NCBI GenBank assembly: GCA_963758525.1
Contig: CAVWVQ010000003.1
Span: 64,001 to 128,000, forward strand
Direction: 5' to 3'
Origin: an uncultured Phycisphaerales bacterium
Lineage (GTDB): Bacteria; Planctomycetota; Phycisphaerae; Tepidisphaerales; Tepidisphaeraceae
Length of the DNA: 64,000 nucleotides
The translations under genes were made by a program, and so were the position numbers. Positions 16,029-25,848 of this stretch are shown piece by piece; position 1 is the stretch's first letter, and every line of letters begins with the position of its first letter. The notes beneath the pieces were generated by a model. The model saw nothing but the letters and a program-made list of their open reading frames with translations, was not told the origin of the DNA and did not search any database.

Positions 16029-16913
16029 TTATAAGGGAAACAGCAGGGGTTGCGCAGGGTTCGCCGTGATGGCGTCGATGCGCGAAAATCCGACGATGCG
16101 ATCAAGCTTGAATGTCCGCCGTTCGTTTCGCAATTGGCAGTGGGCGACGAGGATCAATTCCCCGGCCACGCGGCGCACGTGCAACGGCTCGATCGCGCGC
16201 TGCGTCCGAAAGTCACGCGCATCGATATAGTCCATCATGACCGCGCACTTTTGTTCCAGCGCCTCCTCAAGCTCGAGCGGCAGCATCCTCTGGCGCGGCT
16301 TGAGCGGTAAAAGCCCCATTGGGCCGCCCTGCGCCTGAATGACGTCGCAGAGCATTGCGTGCCAGCCGCCGATCGGCTCCAGCAACCGGCCTAGAACATT
16401 GGCGGTGGTTTGCGCATCGGCCAGGGCACGATGCGCGCCCGATGGAATCACTCCCAGCCGCGGCGCCAACCGCTGCAATCCATTGCCGCCGCGCCCGAAG
16501 CGACGCCGGGCGATACGAACCGTATCAAGAACGGGCACGGCTCCCAGAGTTTCTTGAATATCAAACCCCGACCGGCGAAATTCTCGATGCAGAAATGACA
16601 GATCAAAGCGAATGTTGTGTCCGACGACGATCGCGCCGCGAAGGAAAGCAAGGGCGGGAACCAACTGGTCGCAAAATTGCGGCTGGCCGATGACCATTTC
16701 GCTGGTGATTCCCGTCAGCGCAGTGATGCCGGCGCTGATGGGCCGGGCGGGATAGATCAGTTGCTGATATTCCCCGACAACCTGGCCGCCTTCGATCCGG
16801 ACGATGCCCAGCTCGATGACCCGGTGCCCCAGATCAGCCGACGCCCCGGTGGTTTCCACATCCAGGATCGCCAGCGGAATTTCCAACAGTGGTTGTAACA
16901 GTGAAAACGACAT
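16029..16913 (-). CDS. DEDDh 3'-5' exonuclease fused to C-terminal WYL domain
   Basis: LDVETTG, VGHNIRFD..FL, HRALADA (DEDDh); C-terminal Y.....T.R.IEP...L.AHCQLRNERRTFKLDRI (WYL). Confidence 0.88.
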   Translation of the reverse strand: MSFSLLQPLLEIPLAILDVETTGASADLGHRVIELGIVRIEGGQVVGEYQQLIYPARPISAGITALTGITSEMVIGQPQFCDQLVPALAFLRGAIVVGHNIRFDLSFLHREFRRSGFDIQETLGAVPVLDTVRIARRRFGRGGNGLQRLAPRLGVIPSGAHRALADAQTTANVLGRLLEPIGGWHAMLCDVIQAQGGPMGLLPLKPRQRMLPLELEEALEQKCAVMMDYIDARDFRTQRAIEPLHVRRVAGELILVAHCQLRNERRTFKLDRIVGFSRIDAITANPAQPLLFPL

Positions 16914-17037
16914 TGCCGACAGCACACTCCATTGGCTGACGTCCACCCTCTTCCCCGCAATGCCTCCGTGCCCCCTCACATCCCTTACTTCCTCACCCTT
17001 CGTGCCTACGTGCCTTCGTGCCTTCCTCCCCTTCCCC

Positions 17038-17511
17038 CTACATCTCCGTCCCAATGATAGTCGACTCAAAGACCAGGCTGCCGTCGACGACCCCCTGAAT
17101 TTTGGAGCAAAATCTGCGGTGACGCACCCATTGCTTCTGCCCCACCAGATAGAGCCGCTGCCCCGGGCGGACAGCCTGGCGGAATCGAATCGCGTCGGCT
17201 CCCCCGAAGCCGATGAATCCCTGCCATTTCTCGTATTTGCGAACGTAAAACGAGGCGAGCTGAGCCCCCGCTTCGATCATGAGCACGCCAGGAAGCAGCG
17301 GGTTGCCGGGGATGTGGCCCGCGACCCAAAACTCGTCGGCCCGCGCATCCTTGTAGCCGATGATCCGTCCCAGTTCTGGCGCGGTATAGACAATCCCGTC
17401 GAGTTGCTCCATGTCCCCGCGCTGCAGATTGCAGCGGCGAATCTCCTCCTGATCGAACACAACACGGCTCAGGTCGATGACGGAGATGTCGTAGAGCAGT
17501 TGCGGCGGCAT
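17038..17511 (-). CDS. fabZ: FabA/FabZ-type 3-hydroxyacyl-ACP dehydratase
   Basis: GHIPGNPLLPGVLMIEAGAQL, RFRQAVRPG hotdog fold. Confidence 0.8.
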   Translation of the reverse strand: MPPQLLYDISVIDLSRVVFDQEEIRRCNLQRGDMEQLDGIVYTAPELGRIIGYKDARADEFWVAGHIPGNPLLPGVLMIEAGAQLASFYVRKYEKWQGFIGFGGADAIRFRQAVRPGQRLYLVGQKQWVRHRRFCSKIQGVVDGSLVFESTIIGTEM

Positions 17512-18062: not shown

Positions 18063-18926
18063 TTAGCTGCCTTCGGCGATATACTCTCTGAACGCACCCA
18101 TCAGCCTCCGCGTCAGCGCCCCCGGTTTACCATCACCGATTTCGCGGCCGTCGATTGTTGTCACCGGCGCGATCTCCGCCGCGGTTCCCGTCAAGAAGCA
18201 TTCGTCGGCTATATAGAGGTCATGCCGCTGCAGGGTTTTCTCGACGGCTGGAATCTGTAACCGCTGACACAAAAGGAGGATAAGTCCGCGGGTCACCCCT
18301 TCCAGGATCCCGTCAGACGTAGTCGGCGTCTGCACCTGGCCATGGCGGATGATGAAGATATTATCTCCCGAACACTCGGCAATGTTCCCCTCATGGTTGA
18401 GCATGATTGCCTCCTCAACCCCGGCATCGCACGCCTCGATTTTGGCAAGGATGTTGTTGAGGTAATTCAGACTTTTGATGCGCGGAGAAACGGCATTGGG
18501 ATGGTTGCGTATCACTGAAGCCGTCACCACCGCCATCCCTTTTTCGTAGACTGCCGGGTCATACAACGCGATCTGGTCGGCAATGATGATGACGCCGGGA
18601 TTTTCACATTTATTGGGGTTCAATCCCAGACACCCGACGCCACGGGTGACGATCGCGCGGATGTAGCAGTTCCTCAGCCCATTGACGCGAACGGTCTCTT
18701 CCATCGCCGAACGCATTTGCGGCAGCGTGATTGGAACCCGCAGGCGGATCGCCCGGGCGGACTGATACAGGCGATCGAGATGGGCATCGGCCTCAAAGAC
18801 CTTCCCGTTATAGACGCGCACGCCTTCAAAAACGCCGTCGCCATACAGCACGCCGTGGTCGTAGACGCTGATCTTCGCATCGGCCTGATCGACCAGCTTC
18901 CCATCCATCCAAATCTTCAACGACAT
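18063..18926 (-). CDS. ilvE: Branched-chain amino acid aminotransferase
   Basis: DHGVLYGDGVFEG, IKSLNYLNNILAKIEA, ILEGVTR, FLTGTAAEI. Confidence 0.95.
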   Translation of the reverse strand: MSLKIWMDGKLVDQADAKISVYDHGVLYGDGVFEGVRVYNGKVFEADAHLDRLYQSARAIRLRVPITLPQMRSAMEETVRVNGLRNCYIRAIVTRGVGCLGLNPNKCENPGVIIIADQIALYDPAVYEKGMAVVTASVIRNHPNAVSPRIKSLNYLNNILAKIEACDAGVEEAIMLNHEGNIAECSGDNIFIIRHGQVQTPTTSDGILEGVTRGLILLLCQRLQIPAVEKTLQRHDLYIADECFLTGTAAEIAPVTTIDGREIGDGKPGALTRRLMGAFREYIAEGS

Positions 18927-18989: not shown

Positions 18990-20125
18990 TTATTGGTAAT
19001 CGAGCGTCCCGGCTTTATCGGGTTCCGGCCCATCGCCCGGGCGCTCGAGCCGGCCGTTGCGAAGCACCAGCACGCGATCCGCCTTGCTGGCGACGCTGCG
19101 GTCGTGAGTGACCATGACAATCGTCTGCCGCTGCTCGCGATGCAGGCGTTCGAGCACCGCCATGATCTGCCCGCCGGTTTCAACATCGAGATTGCCGGTC
19201 GGCTCATCCGCGAAGAGAACGCGCGGGTTGTTCATCAGCGCCCTCGCGATCGCAACCCGCTGGCGCTCGCCGCCGGAGAGTTCGCTAGGCTTGTGCTTCA
19301 GGCGCTCGGCAAGCCCTACTTCCGTCAGGACCTCGGTCGCCCGCGCCTTCAGCGCCGGCTTGTCCCGAAGATACCGCAGCCAGGAGCGCTCGACCATCGC
19401 GGGCATCAGCGCGTTCTCAAGTACATTCAACTCCGGCAGCAGATGATAAAACTGAAAGACGAACCCAAACGAGTTGGTTCGCAGTTCGCAGACGGGTCGT
19501 TCCGCAATATAGCCGGCAATCGCCAGGTAGATTGCAAATACAACAGGCGGCGCCACTTCGATTGCTGTCCGGAGCCACCACGTCACATTCGCCGCTTCCA
19601 GGCACCACTCCGCCCCTGCAAAGACCCACGCGGCAGCAATCAGCAGCAGCATTCGCTCCGATTTCTTGAACAGCGCCACTGCCACCCAAATCAGGGTGAT
19701 CACCGGCAGCGAGATTCGCACAATCGGGACGAGCGGGATCAGTGCCATTGCGCTCATGATGGATACTGCAACAATAGCCTCGATCCACATGCGAACTCGA
19801 AGCGGAATAGCCAAAAGCCCTCGAAACGGCGTGGGATACAGCCACCCTTTGGGGTTGGCGGCATATCGTGCTCCCTCGAATTCCAGCGTTCCTGCATCGG
19901 GCACATCAAGACCGCCCATGATGTGCAGCAGAGTGCTCTTGCCGGAGCCGGATTTTCCTTCGATCGCGACGAACTCCCCTTCCCGCAGCGTCAGGTCGAC
20001 AAGTTTGAGAATCTGCAGCACGTCGCGGCCGGTTTCGTAAGTTTTTTTCAATCCCTTGTGCGCAGAATCGTCGGCCGCTCCGACCGGGAGGATTGCACCG
20101 CTGTTTGAGAGACCACTTGCGACAT
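18990..20125 (-). CDS. lolD: LolD-like ABC ATPase with internal hydrophobic insertion (probable 5' frameshift near 20060; ORF track starts 20051)
   Basis: GKSGSGKST, FGFVFQFYHLLPEL..LEN, LSGGERQRVAIARAL, ADEPTGNLD, VTHD; downstream of lolC/E. Confidence 0.85.
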
Positions 20126-20166: not shown

Positions 20167-20213
20167 GCAGGTTTAGCTTAGAGCCAGTTTCAGAACTTGC
20201 GCAGGCGCCGCCA

Positions 20214-20317
20214 CCTGTTTAGCCGCACCGCGCAGCAAAGCGCGTCCTGACGGATCGCTGCCAAAGGTCCATAAAACGTCGCTCGGCGCGCTTCGCTGCG
20301 CGGCGCGGCTAAACAGG
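20214..20317. repeat. TTAGCCGC...GCGGCTAA palindromic REP-like pair
   Basis: cctgtttagccgcaccgcgcagcaaagcgcg / cgcgcttcgctgcgcggcgcggctaaacagg; relatives at 29174-29235 and 41256-41284. Confidence 0.75.
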
Positions 20318-20344
20318 CTCCGAATGGACCCACGGTCGCAAATT

Positions 20345-22132
20345 TTACTCCCACCGCAGCGATTCCACGGGATTTTTTCGCCCTGCCGCGATCGCCGGAA
20401 TCAACGCGCCCAGCACGCTGGCCAGGATCGCGATCGGCACAATCCATTTAATGTCGGTCGCGCTCATCTGGTTGGGAATCTTGTCGAACAGATACACCTC
20501 CGGATTCCAGATCTGCACGTGAAACTGCCGGCCCAGCCATGCGTGCATTTCGTTGATGTAATGCACGATGAGATAGCTGACCAGCAGGCCCAATCCGCTG
20601 CCGATGAGCCCGATGGTCAAGCCGTACCACAGGAAAATGCCGGCGACGCCCGCCGAGCTGGCGCCGACGCTCTTGATGATGCCGATATCCCGCGTCTTCT
20701 CCAGCACGATCATGTAGAAGATGCAGAAGATCAGGAAGATCGCCACGATGCTGATGACGCCAAACAGCATCACCGTCAGCATCTTCTCGTTCTCGATCGC
20801 ATTGATCCAAACCGCCTGGCTCTCCAGCCACGTCTCGACGTACGGATGGCCGGTTCCGGTGATGTTTGTCCCCTCGTGCGACAGTTCCACCGCGTCGACT
20901 TGCTTCTCAATCTCGTCGCGCGCGACGGCCAGCGACGCGTCGTCGGTGAATCCGGGCTTCATGCGGACATGAATTTCCGTCGTTCGCGCGGGAATTTTGA
21001 TCTTCTCCCCCGTGTCCAATGTCGCGTCCTGCGCATTCATCCCCAAATCCGACTGGAGCTGAGCGAACGACACGTAAACGTAGTTGTTGTCGTATTGCCA
21101 GATTTGCGTTCGGCTGTCGTCCACGAGCCAGTAATTTCGCTCGGACCGGTTGTTGATATCCGGGCTCGACTCCCCGGGATGAAATCCCAGCACCGTCAGC
21201 TTCAGCGGTCGGCCATAAATCCCCGGATCGTCCGGCAACGGCAGCCGCGGCCCAAGCGGCGACCCCCACGTCCCCGTCTTGTCGCGCTGAATCCCGATCA
21301 CGCCGATGCCGACGATCATCCCCGGCCATTTCGTGACATCCTGCCGCGTGCGCGGCACCAGCGACTGGTAATCGATCACCTCCCCGCTGTTGGAAATCGC
21401 GAAGAGCTGGTCGACTGCCTGCTTGAACTGCGCATCCTGCGACAATCCCCGCAGCAGCAGCCGATCCTCCGGCCCCATGATCCCCTTGAACATCAGCTTC
21501 CCCGCCTGCGGATCAAACCAGAATCGCGACGCCAGGCTTTCGGGGAGATTTGCCTTTCCCACTGAACCTTGAACCCTGAACTCTGAACCCTCCTTCGCGA
21601 GCCGAACATCGCCCGGCATATTTTTAAGCGGCACGCCGCACCGATCCAGCAGATCGAACGACGCGGGCTGCTTCAGTTGTTCCTGGAGCTGCGCCCGCAG
21701 CTCGGGCGAGAGCTTCGGGTCGGCCAGCATCTCTTCGAGGTTGGTGTGCTGCCGAAACAGCGAATCCGGAAACCGGTTCACATTTCCGATCTGCTCGATG
21801 GGAATGCCGATCACCTTCACCGCCGCCGTCGGGTATGGCCCGACATTCAGCAGACCAAACGTCTCGATGCTGGGGACCGCCGCCGCCACGCCCGGCACCT
21901 GCAGGATCTTGTCCATCATCTCCTGATAATACGGGAATCCCGTCAGCGAAGAGCTGCGCACGATGATGTCGCCGGTGAGTCCGTGGAACGACTGCTTGAA
22001 CATGTTGAGCCACCCGCCCATGACGCTGATGACCACCAGCACCATGGTGGTGCAAAGCATCACCGCCGCGAGGGAAACCCAGGCGATTCGGCGCTTGAGG
22101 AGGTATTTGAGGATGAGGAGGAGTTTGTACAT
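20345..22132 (-). CDS. lolC: LolC/E-type ABC permease (FtsX/MacB) with enlarged periplasmic region
   Basis: MYKLLLILKYLLKRR, VVISVMGG, IVLEKTRDIGIIKSVGAS, YLFDKIP, NPVESLRWE; lysS-lolCE-lolD order. Confidence 0.85.
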   Translation of the reverse strand: MYKLLLILKYLLKRRIAWVSLAAVMLCTTMVLVVISVMGGWLNMFKQSFHGLTGDIIVRSSSLTGFPYYQEMMDKILQVPGVAAAVPSIETFGLLNVGPYPTAAVKVIGIPIEQIGNVNRFPDSLFRQHTNLEEMLADPKLSPELRAQLQEQLKQPASFDLLDRCGVPLKNMPGDVRLAKEGSEFRVQGSVGKANLPESLASRFWFDPQAGKLMFKGIMGPEDRLLLRGLSQDAQFKQAVDQLFAISNSGEVIDYQSLVPRTRQDVTKWPGMIVGIGVIGIQRDKTGTWGSPLGPRLPLPDDPGIYGRPLKLTVLGFHPGESSPDINNRSERNYWLVDDSRTQIWQYDNNYVYVSFAQLQSDLGMNAQDATLDTGEKIKIPARTTEIHVRMKPGFTDDASLAVARDEIEKQVDAVELSHEGTNITGTGHPYVETWLESQAVWINAIENEKMLTVMLFGVISIVAIFLIFCIFYMIVLEKTRDIGIIKSVGASSAGVAGIFLWYGLTIGLIGSGLGLLVSYLIVHYINEMHAWLGRQFHVQIWNPEVYLFDKIPNQMSATDIKWIVPIAILASVLGALIPAIAAGRKNPVESLRWE

Positions 22133-22138
22133 GGAGCA

Positions 22139-22755
22139 GGTGATTGGTGATTGGAACGTGACTCAGAACTTGCCGTCTGCGGATGCTTCGGCCGAGCGTT
22201 CATTTGGCAGCTGTTGCCTCCGCGGGTCCGCTGATTGGTGAGTGGAACATGGCAAAGCGTCTGCGTTCGGTGCGTCGTTCAGTTGAATATTCTTCCGTCG
22301 CTCGTTGGCAGCCATACGGATCAACAACTTTGCCAATTGCGTCATGATTCCGATCCTATGGGCGGTTACTTTGGAGCCCAGCACGGCTCGTGCCTTGAAA
22401 TACCAGTCCCGAGTTTCGCGCGGAGCCGAGTGCGTACTCATAAAACCTCGCGCGGTCGCGTCCACTCCCGCGTGAGTAGCCTTCCGCGACGTTTGAACTA
22501 ATGTTGCCTGCTGCGCGACATAATTGGTCGGCGGTGGACTTGGCGCGGGCGTCGCGCATTAGCTTCGCGCCGTCATTCCAAGCCAGATCAGACGCAAACA
22601 GTCCAAGTCGGTACGCCTCCATCTTCCAAACAGAGTCACCTCGAATCTCCTCCGGAACCTGCTTCTCCCAGTCATCAAATGTCACGGCATCCCCGTCTTG
22701 TCAGGTTCCACGTTCCAATCACCAGCGCCTTGTCACGTTCCAATCACCAATCACC
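22139..22755. mobile_element. Inverted-repeat-bounded four-helix-bundle cassette
   Basis: Perfect 24-bp IRs GGTGATTGGTGATTGGAACGTGAC (22139-22162) and its reverse complement (22732-22755) enclose a single gene. Confidence 0.6.
22163..22685 (-). CDS. Four helix bundle protein (23S rRNA IVP / TIGR02436-like; frameshift near 22415)
   Basis: DQLCRAAGNISSNVAEGYSR...RFYEYALGSAR|ETRDWY. Confidence 0.85.
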
Positions 22756-24241
22756 CTGACGTCAAACGGGTCGGCGATTCCATCGGCCGCATCAAAGGAA
22801 ACAGAAGCACATCCCGTATGCTCTCCGCGCCCGTCAGCATCATCACCAGCCGGTCGATTCCCATTCCCATGCCGCCTGCGGGGGGCATTCCATATCGTAG
22901 GGCGGTCAGGAAGTCTTCGTCGGTCTTTTGCTTCTCGGCATCGTCGCCAACCTGATGCGCGAAGTTTGCCGCTTGAACGTCCGGATCGTTCAACTCACTG
23001 TAGCCAGGGGAGATCTCCGAGCCGTTGATCGCAAGTTCGTAGACGTCCGCGAAGAAGGGATCGGCGGCGTTTTTCCTGGCAAGCGGAATGATCACCGACG
23101 GAAAATGCGTGACGAAGCACGGGTCGATCAACGTCGGCTCGACGAGTTTCTCATACACCTCCACAAGCTGCTCTGCTGGCGACTTCCCGCGCAGGGCAAG
23201 CTGCTTGCCACCGATGTCCGACTCCCGGAGGTCGCCGAGTTCGATCGTCTTCTTCTGAAATTTCCACCCCGTCTTCTCTTCGACAAGCTCCGCCAGGCGG
23301 ACACGCCGCCAGGGGCGCTGGAGATTGATGGCTTTCCCTTCGCGATGGGCGATCTGCAGCCCGCCGACCAGCTTCTCAGCCACGGAGCAGATCATCCCCT
23401 CGACCAGGTCGGCCATGGTTTCCCATGATCCGAACGCCTCATACGCTTCGAGCATGGTGAACTCGGGATTGTGCCGCGGGCTGATTCCTTCGTTGCGGAA
23501 GTTGCGGTTCAGCTCAAATACCTTGCTGAAGCCGCCGACGAGGAGGCGCTTGAGATAGAGTTCCGGCGCGATCCGCATGTAGAGCGGGATGTCGAGCGCA
23601 TTGTGATGCGTGACAAACGGCCGAGCCGCGGCGCCGCCCGCCAGCGGCTGCATCATCGGCGTTTCGACCTCGAGATACCCCTGCTCCTTCATATATTGCC
23701 GGATCGCGTCGACGATCTGCACCCGCAGCTTGAGCACGCGCATTACCTCCGGATTGGCCCAGAGATCGACATACCTTTGCCGATACCGCAGTTCCACATC
23801 CGACAGCCCCTCCCACTTCGCGGGAGGCGGAAGCAACGCCTTCGACGCCATCGTCACCGATGTCGCCCAGATCGTGATCTCGCCTTTGTTTGTCGAGCCC
23901 AACGGCCCTTCAACGACGATCAGATCGCCAAGATCGATCAAATCGCGCACGCCCCACGCTTTTTCGTCCACTCGTCGTTTGTCGATCGCGATCTGCAGGT
24001 CGCCGGTCTCGTCGCGGAGGGTGAGAAAGCTAAGCTTCCCCATGTCGCGCTTGAGCATGACCCGCCCCGCCGCTTTCACCACGGGTCCGGCGTCGTGCCC
24101 CATCGCCGGCTCAAACGATCCCTTGATTTGCGCCAACGGCTGCAGTCCTTCGGTCCGCGTCCCGTACGGATCGACGCCCAGCTCGCGCAGCTTGGCTAGT
24201 TTCTCCCGTCGAATTTGTTCCTGATCGCCTGAGTCGCTCAT
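22751..24241 (-). CDS. lysS: Lysyl-tRNA synthetase class II
   Basis: RYRQRYVDL, GGAAARPFVTHHN, FRNEGISPRHNPEFTMLEAY, YGMPPAGGMGMGIDRL. Confidence 0.98.
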   Translation of the reverse strand: MSDSGDQEQIRREKLAKLRELGVDPYGTRTEGLQPLAQIKGSFEPAMGHDAGPVVKAAGRVMLKRDMGKLSFLTLRDETGDLQIAIDKRRVDEKAWGVRDLIDLGDLIVVEGPLGSTNKGEITIWATSVTMASKALLPPPAKWEGLSDVELRYRQRYVDLWANPEVMRVLKLRVQIVDAIRQYMKEQGYLEVETPMMQPLAGGAAARPFVTHHNALDIPLYMRIAPELYLKRLLVGGFSKVFELNRNFRNEGISPRHNPEFTMLEAYEAFGSWETMADLVEGMICSVAEKLVGGLQIAHREGKAINLQRPWRRVRLAELVEEKTGWKFQKKTIELGDLRESDIGGKQLALRGKSPAEQLVEVYEKLVEPTLIDPCFVTHFPSVIIPLARKNAADPFFADVYELAINGSEISPGYSELNDPDVQAANFAHQVGDDAEKQKTDEDFLTALRYGMPPAGGMGMGIDRLVMMLTGAESIRDVLLFPLMRPMESPTRLTSG

Positions 24242-25248: not shown

Positions 25249-25663
25249 TCAAACAGCGGTCTGTTCACGTGCACTGCGAGTCGCTCCGCAGCACCACCAA
25301 TAGCACCCGGCGAGGACCCCGCCGATCCCGTATGCGACGATGTCCCACGGGTCGCCCGCAGCGATGAAGACGTTCGGGAAGCGGGGAACCACGATTTGGA
25401 AGACGAGCGTAAAGACCACCAGGTTTTGGAATATCTCCCATGCGCGGGAAACCGCGATGTTTTCGCAATCCGATGAGGTGCTGCACATAGAGGATGATCG
25501 GAACAAACAACGGCAGGCAAAGAATGTCGTTCAGGTAGCCGTGCGTGAACCAACCGCCGACGTGATGTGGCTTGAAAAAGAAACGGTTGACGGCGTAAAG
25601 AAGAAGTGAGAGCACGCAAGCGCCGTCGGCGATGTAGCGAAACTGACGCGGGCGCGGAATCAC
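25249..25663 (-). CDS. Small membrane protein (frameshift near 25440)
   Basis: LYAVNRFF...YLNDILCLP joined to FQIVVP...GDPWDIVAYGIGG. Confidence 0.6.
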
Positions 25664-25683
25664 GGTGGACCTGCAAGGAGCCC

Positions 25684-25848
25684 CTAATGCCCGCCTCCGC
25701 CGACGGGCATCAGAAATAAGGCCGCGGCCGACGCAATGAGCGCGCTGACGATCGTGCCGGCGACGACATACCACACGATTCTCCACGGGTCGGCTTTCGG
25801 CGGCGATGTGTCGTAATCGAGCGGCTCGGGTTCGGATTCGTCTTTCAT
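25684..25848 (-). CDS. 54-aa single-TM protein with N-terminal PLDY motif
   Basis: MKDESEPEPLDYDTSPPKADPWRIVWYVVAG...; TATGAT 7 nt upstream. Confidence 0.55.
   Translation of the reverse strand: MKDESEPEPLDYDTSPPKADPWRIVWYVVAGTIVSALIASAAALFLMPVGGGGH

Follow-up and report, generated by a model that had tools for sequence, protein, structure and literature searches.

LolCDE and LolDF are essential in many diderm bacteria and are an active antibiotic target, and their ATPase is described as a cytosolic subunit. Canonical LolD, at about 220-250 aa, is soluble and cytoplasmic and has no membrane helices. MacB, also of type VII, is a fused ATPase-permease in which an intact ATPase is joined end-to-end to its own permease. 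In E. coli LolCDE (PDB 7V8L, 7ARH), LolD is a type VII ABC ATPase with all motifs; it is cytosolic according to the available part of PMC8333309, and engages LolC/E via the coupling helix, the C-terminus and the elbow helix (available parts of PMC8333309 and PMC13350855). The available parts of PMC13575116 and PMC13350855 describe Acinetobacter LolDF as homodimeric with a soluble LolD and report the Q-loop residue Tyr93 to be essential; in the former, the Q-loop of LolD is also described as touching the elbow and coupling helices of LolF. Further general background is given in the available parts of PMC10094684 and PMC9595528.

The locus described here lies in a window of 64,000 nucleotides, the whole stretch of DNA that was analysed, from an uncultured soil planctomycete of the family Tepidisphaeraceae (genome G000). 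Its LolD resembles that of E. coli LolCDE, its top family, sequence and structure match, in being a type VII ABC ATPase with all motifs, and its gene follows that of a four-helix lolC/E permease. Whereas E. coli LolD is cytosolic, the window's LolD is interrupted by a net 116 residues with four predicted membrane crossings, which makes it a LolD variant rather than a canonical member. The genes of the locus, in the order lysS-lolC/E-lolD-ilvE, are as follows.

22751..24241, minus strand: lysS, upstream synteny marker (family match, synteny)
20345..22132, minus strand: lolC/E (LolF-type) permease, 595 aa, four predicted membrane helices (best TIGR02212 match in the genome)
18990..20051, minus strand: lolD open frame, 353 aa from a TTG start
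18990..20125, minus strand: probable full extent of lolD, from an ATG at 20125 across a one-base break near 20057-20059 (homologue read-through)
18063..18926, minus strand: ilvE, downstream synteny marker (family match, synteny)

The open frame at 18990-20051 is the lolD orthologue, as the earlier note had proposed; this identity follows from synteny and from the sole strong lolC/E-like gene adjoining it. TIGR02211 LolD is its top NCBIfam family, at 234 bits against a cut-off of 307.75. An insert-free orthologue reaches 260 bits, so that the cut-off is missed even without the insert, and just one of 14 control genomes was found to pass it. TIGR02212 matches four genes in the genome, the lolD-adjacent one at 2.4e-33 (itself under the cut-off) and the three others at 1e-13 or weaker. 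These sub-threshold scores would also fit an ATPase that drives a different type VII system, or a pair that has stopped exporting lipoproteins, as would the five further type VII ATPases of the genome, which score 214-248 bits on the LolD model, and the lack of an Lnt match in G000 (91% complete). Such a reassignment is nevertheless very improbable: lolC/E adjoins lolD in 20/22 insert loci and 90/100 plain loci (some of them incomplete), the top PDB matches of the insert-free orthologue are E. coli LolD chains, LolA is present above its cut-off (PF03548, E=2.3e-18), and the five paralogues do not have the FQFYHLLP sequence in the Q-loop. Only 62 of the 141 family genomes have an Lnt above the cut-off. 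Like Acinetobacter LolDF, the window's genome has one permease gene, and a homodimeric F2D2 machine is therefore likely; unlike the soluble LolD of that system, the window's LolD carries predicted membrane helices. With MacB it shares the covalent tie of an ATPase to membrane helices, but its own helices lie within the ATPase fold, and the permease is a separate complete protein. A MacB-type fusion, with the ATPase N-terminal to a four-helix FtsX permease that bears a periplasmic domain, was excluded: Pfam gave no match for the insert at E 0.1, and a separate permease gene is present.

Several other features of the surroundings were observed. The permease gene encodes 595 aa against a median of 505 in plain relatives, with the surplus in the periplasmic domain. 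The LolD core and LolC/E of G000 cluster with genus label g2 and not with its own genus mates G001 and G002, reflecting either a gene-pair transfer or a loose genus assignment. The spacer between lolC/E and lolD (20200-20334) holds a long GC-rich hairpin with six sub-threshold miRNA-type Rfam matches, probably a REP-like repeat. Between lysS and lolC/E lies a four-helix-bundle gene (23S_rRNA_IVP, PF05635; 22163-22685, minus strand) with a one-base frame break near 22416, unbroken in six related loci. A small membrane-protein ORF (25249-25700, minus strand) seems to carry on in a second frame near 25445, which is likely a third indel in the 64-kb window, and a DEDDh exonuclease with a fused C-terminal WYL domain is encoded at 16029-17069 (minus strand).

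The 5' end of lolD contains a one-base frame break near 20057-20059 and a probable ATG at 20125, both absent from the earlier note. The real start is probably this ATG, which lies in a frame other than that of the main ORF. Contigs of runs X1 and X2 each have one extra base at 20057-20059 (depth below 5 apiece), and in five close homologues the lolD frame is unbroken where the window breaks near 20058. A neighbouring gene 2.3 kb away has a similar one-base break and is intact in six relatives; this second break indicates indel noise in the assembly. Overall, the 5' frameshift is likely an assembly error and the gene no pseudogene. Within the open frame, the motifs and the inserted segment are arranged as follows.

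19935..19958, minus strand: Walker A, GKSGSGKS (sequence, alignment)
19503..19871, minus strand: 123-residue segment in place of a 7-residue stretch, net 116 aa (comparison with relatives)
19434..19469, minus strand: Q-loop region, GFVFQFYHLLP (sequence, alignment, mapping onto E. coli LolD)
19104..19280, minus strand: signature LSGGE, Walker B/D-loop and H-loop, intact (sequence, alignment)

Walker A, Q-loop, LSGGE, Walker B, D-loop and H-loop were all found intact and in one frame by both sequence and alignment, as previously claimed, and the Pfam ABC ATPase match of the ORF is divided into two parts. The essential Q-loop Tyr93 probably corresponds to Phe199 in the window's LolD, a family-wide trait unrelated to the insert. 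In the helical subdomain, a segment at about residues 217-231 (19360-19400, minus strand) is six residues longer and strongly amphipathic (moment 0.84); it occurs in nearly all Phycisphaerae LolD proteins examined, with or without an insert, and is a possible second membrane contact.

The comparison with relatives was based on the best match from each of the 129 Tepidisphaeraceae genomes, out of 141, that gave a match and from 18 class outgroups (147 loci), of which 7 were dropped because they had no in-frame Walker A and 140 were scored; the 122 scorable family genomes include G004, counted as an insert-free row on which no conclusion depends. Walker A and the Q-loop are separated by 167 aa in the window and by exactly 51 in 111 of the 140 scorable relatives, giving a net insert of 116 aa. 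The in-frame insert reported earlier is thus real, and extends nine bases beyond the interval first given. The 123-residue segment is bounded by GTLEFEG and ERPVCELR, where the post-Walker-A strands give way to the pre-Q-loop helix. Mapped via the insert-free orthologue, the site corresponds to residues ~74-80 of E. coli LolD, 15-20 residues before the Q-loop pair Tyr93-Gln94. Since it is with its Q-loop that LolD touches the permease's elbow and coupling helices, the site would face the membrane.

The insert recurs, at 36-54% identity, in nine further proteins or genomes (G153, G155, G156 and P0002-P0007), among which P0004 and P0007 are on syntenic metagenome contigs; P0008, labelled Tepidisphaeraceae by its source, is encoded in the family genome G156, and the family name derives from this label. 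Over the ten members of this clade, 19 positions of the insert are invariant, mainly at both ends. As for whether the insert is conserved or variable among orthologues, a question already raised, it is conserved in these relatives; some insert in this loop occurs in 22 of the 122 family genomes. In rough NG86 estimates, with dS often near saturation, dN/dS of the window against L257 and L258 was 0.30 and 0.27 for the insert and 0.05 and 0.08 for the core; the other pairs with finite values gave 0.23-0.73 and 0.09-0.14, respectively. The insert value is 2-6 times that of the core, reaching 0.73 in one pair. The insert is under purifying but relaxed selection, and has been retained across near-saturated synonymous divergence (dS 1.3-2.3). 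Across the inserts, GC3 follows that of the host core (Spearman 0.87, n=22, the genomes being kin and so not independent).

These data bear on whether the insert is real in the protein. It would be scarcely credible that it reflects a misassembly, a pseudogene, or a mobile DNA or RNA element removed before translation. The frame break near 20058 could be read in that way, as could the fact that none of the listed contigs spans the whole insert: coverage of the 3' junction was confirmed by an X1 soil-run contig over 19296-19603 with 1 mismatch, but 19614-19868 is without a covering read or contig in X1-X3, so that only this part of the proposed junction check held. The independent homologues, the dN/dS values below 1, the contig over the 3' junction and the assembly indels indicated by the break 2.3 kb away all point the other way, and the insert is no artefact. 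In addition, the insert is single-copy in the genome, has no Rfam match, and shows no terminal or notable repeats, with just one 11-nt direct pair and one 17-nt 76% inverted pair. Three 'skip' joints in X1-X3 were rejected, since their sides are only 26-32 bases and derive from other ABC genes. No RNA data set was listed as a holder. A coding palindromic repeat or MITE (RPE-like) was excluded by the single copy and the lack of palindromic or terminal repeats. Inteins end in Cys/Ser...His-Asn; an intein or self-splicing intron was excluded, because these end motifs are absent and neither Pfam nor Rfam gave a match. Among the other 15 insert segments, 7 have weak generic membrane matches in Pfam, so that no donor family was found, and the ESM Atlas returned no usable match for the insert.

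The insert had been described as transmembrane, and the prediction was borne out by AlphaFold2, run on a 26-row alignment, and by hydropathy over the clade. The predicted elements, with residues numbered in the 353-aa frame, are as follows.

Residues 75-81, minus strand: basic amphipathic helix preceding helix 1 (AlphaFold2)
19746..19802, minus strand: predicted membrane helix 1, residues 84-102 (AlphaFold2, clade hydropathy)
19668..19727, minus strand: predicted membrane helix 2, residues 109-128 (AlphaFold2, clade hydropathy)
After helix 2, minus strand: basic KKSER loop, predicted cytoplasmic (AlphaFold2, clade hydropathy)
19593..19658, minus strand: predicted membrane helix 3, residues 132-153 (AlphaFold2, clade hydropathy)
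19470..19580, minus strand: predicted membrane helix 4, residues 158-183, continuous with the native pre-Q-loop helix to 194 (AlphaFold2)

The model places helices at 84-102, 109-128, 132-153 and 158-194, with pLDDT of 82-94 over the block. All of the hydrophobic segments quoted earlier are present, with 19-residue Kyte-Doolittle means peaking at 2.46, 2.32, 1.63 and 1.83, and the four segments average 1.7-1.9 in the ten-member clade. The clade (n=10) averages 5.1 K+R per sequence in its N-flank and 2.1 in its middle loop; the two outer loops have 0.2 and 0.1. In the 18 inserts for which an even number of helices was scored, K+R make up 102/548 residues inside and 32/314 outside. With a simple hydropathy scan, the number of helices came out odd for 8/32 inserts at a threshold of 1.6 and for 6/32 at 1.4; six of the eight belong to the clade whose alignment shows four segments. 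Overall, the insert is very probably embedded in the membrane, and both of its ends and the middle basic loop are predicted to be cytoplasmic. A Foldseek search with the model returned LolD and other type VII ATPases; among the 40 matches listed, no chain has the layout of the window's LolD.

Inserts in the loop between Walker A and the Q-loop are scattered over the family tree, in 22 of the 122 genomes and 13 of 68 genus labels, and six genus labels hold plain sisters beside insert carriers. The earlier note had suggested an extra membrane module for planctomycete lipoprotein trafficking; such a dedicated role is putative, and the insert is not planctomycete-wide: 100/122 family genomes are without it. 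Family inserts are 12-119 aa long, 17/22 being 64 aa or longer; the short ones are mostly amphipathic (moments 0.5-0.9) and the long ones mostly two-helix hairpins. In total, 32 inserts fall into 15 blastp groups. A second Phycisphaerae family has its own inserts (G263 and G401; 2/22 there), and a profile of planctomycete inserts found no full-length match in 400 genomes drawn from the phylum, a search that very different inserts could escape. Two class outgroups, L138 (G039) and L143 (G048), carry inserts in the same loop (53 and 24 aa) that are hydrophilic and not of the membrane type, indicating that the loop accepts soluble additions too. P0009 is a 481-aa LolD with a four-helix insert related to that of the window and a 109-aa PDZ-like stretch, which lies between the first two predicted helices in a predicted outer loop; its sole basis is a sub-threshold Pfam PDZ match (E=0.025), and a single-sequence fold was poor (mean pLDDT 43).

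How often was the insert gained? In a tree of the LolD core and LolC/E (40/94 rows: all long inserts, their genus mates and chosen neighbours), the insert trait requires 10 changes, of which strong branches force at least 7, and 57 of 500 shuffles did equally well. A single insert clade was rejected (p-AU 3e-56 concatenated, 0.004 with the LolD core only), and the same test ruled out that a single insert-bearing lolD spread by transfer of the whole gene. Each of the 17 long inserts of the family begins after a Tyr that occurs in just 5/100 plain genes; many could therefore go back to a common origin, which makes the number of independent gains uncertain. In addition, 60/62 plain lineages have Arg or Lys at position Q-12, and this basic residue is gone in 10/11 insert lineages. 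The shared Tyr and the Q-12 loss may reflect either structural convergence or one cassette spread by sub-gene recombination.

A membrane domain in the same loop was also found outside the planctomycetes. From a profile search of 1.84 billion representatives, the best 150 matches were examined; 21 have a Walker A-Q-loop spacing at least 10 above the norm, one of them a tandem-ATPase artefact. P0153 carries a Pfam RDD domain at this site (E=1.7e-15). RDD-LolD proteins occur in at least 105 clusters (among 120 clusters listed; 45-85% identity), named as Flavisolibacter, Ferruginibacter, Terrimonas ginsenosidimutans and Flaviaesturariibacter amylovorans, all Chitinophagaceae where named; P0162, labelled Nostoc by its source, shares 84% identity with P0153, which belongs to the Chitinophagaceae-type group, and is probably a contaminant. 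The design is therefore not specific to planctomycetes. Like the window's insert, the RDD form (as in T. ginsenosidimutans, L163) is patchy among close relatives: the 80 GTDB loci found with the Terrimonas protein comprise 7 RDD, 72 plain and 1 unscored. Unlike it, the inserted segment is a recognisable domain of ~145 aa, unrelated to that of the window. RDD and plain loci have common gene neighbours, and LolD is the top family for both forms, under the cut-off in each case. The neighbours seen do not include lolC/E, so that Lol identity there rests on the best family and on synteny with plain orthologues, and since genomes with RDD-LolD hold additional type VII ATPases, Lol function there is putative.

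What might the insert do? The preferred reading, with a probability of roughly 0.55, is that it is a useful, sequence-tolerant putative tether or brace, added to what is otherwise an ordinary LolDF-like machine. The four-helix insert would tether LolD to the inner membrane next to LolC/E, its partner, leaving the ATP-binding motifs untouched. The helix bundle would lie at the rim of a (LolC/E)2(LolD)2 complex, adding eight helices altogether, and would act as a generic anchor or brace while extrusion proceeds as in LolDF. Any amphipathic or membrane segment that brings the chain back to the cytoplasm may be a suitable module. Such a module-tolerant site would explain the range of inserts, from amphipathic peptides of 12-55 aa through two-helix hairpins and four-helix bundles to RDD, and the unrelated modules that other planctomycetes and Bacteroidota have in this loop suggest that LolD has likely been tethered several times. 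Counting against a benefit of the putative tether, most relatives manage without an insert.

Near-neutral baggage would fit the raised insert dN/dS too. On this account the membrane-embedded insert confers no advantage and is kept because the frame, hydrophobicity and topology of an essential gene must hold; with the loop at the membrane surface, only amphipathic or membrane-spanning additions would survive. This alternative, unlikely but to be taken seriously, accords with the patchy spread and plain sisters, with the unrelated insert sequences and with the relaxed selection. It also agrees with two candidate roles that did not hold: a link to Lnt was rejected (Lnt present in 6/17 vs 48/100, p=0.43), and so was compensation for lost permease helices, since four helices are present in 6/6 long-insert and 33/35 other complete LolC/E proteins. 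It sits poorly with the 19 invariant positions, with retention of the insert over the dS range given above, and with an RDD form kept in so many clusters.

A recruiting or sensing module appears distinctly unlikely; in it, the helices would bind a partner, be it a lipid, an enzyme of lipoprotein maturation or a periplasmic signal, and would gate the ATPase via the helix running into the Q-loop. The modelled continuity of the last insert helix with the pre-Q-loop helix, the sub-threshold PDZ-like domain of P0009 in its predicted outer loop, and the folded RDD domain with its conserved motifs are in its favour; yet in the window's clade the outer loops are of only 4-8 residues and unconserved, no new gene is common to the insert loci among the neighbours lolC/E, ilvE and lysS, and Lnt is uncorrelated. 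A broader form of this idea is tentative and rather improbable: a membrane-facing plug-in socket just before the Q-loop would have been filled repeatedly in two phyla with unrelated modules, namely amphipathic peptides, hairpins, a four-helix bundle, a PDZ-like bundle and RDD; the outcome would be an integral-membrane ATPase with its last inserted helix wired to the coupling surface, such that membrane or periplasmic cues tune lipoprotein export.

In titles and abstract openings of the literature, with subscription papers and supplements outside this scope, no description of a membrane-inserted LolD or of RDD-LolD was found. Returning to the tether or brace reading, the membrane-anchored LolD series indicates that a nucleotide-binding domain can be interrupted beside its coupling surface by entire membrane modules and yet be kept as the lolD of its locus. 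The inserts grade from 12 to 225 aa, a rare record of a soluble subunit turning into an integral membrane protein. Because the RDD form occurs in named species (Terrimonas ginsenosidimutans, Flaviaesturariibacter amylovorans), the idea can be tested directly, and RDD-LolD may offer a handle on the poorly understood RDD family.
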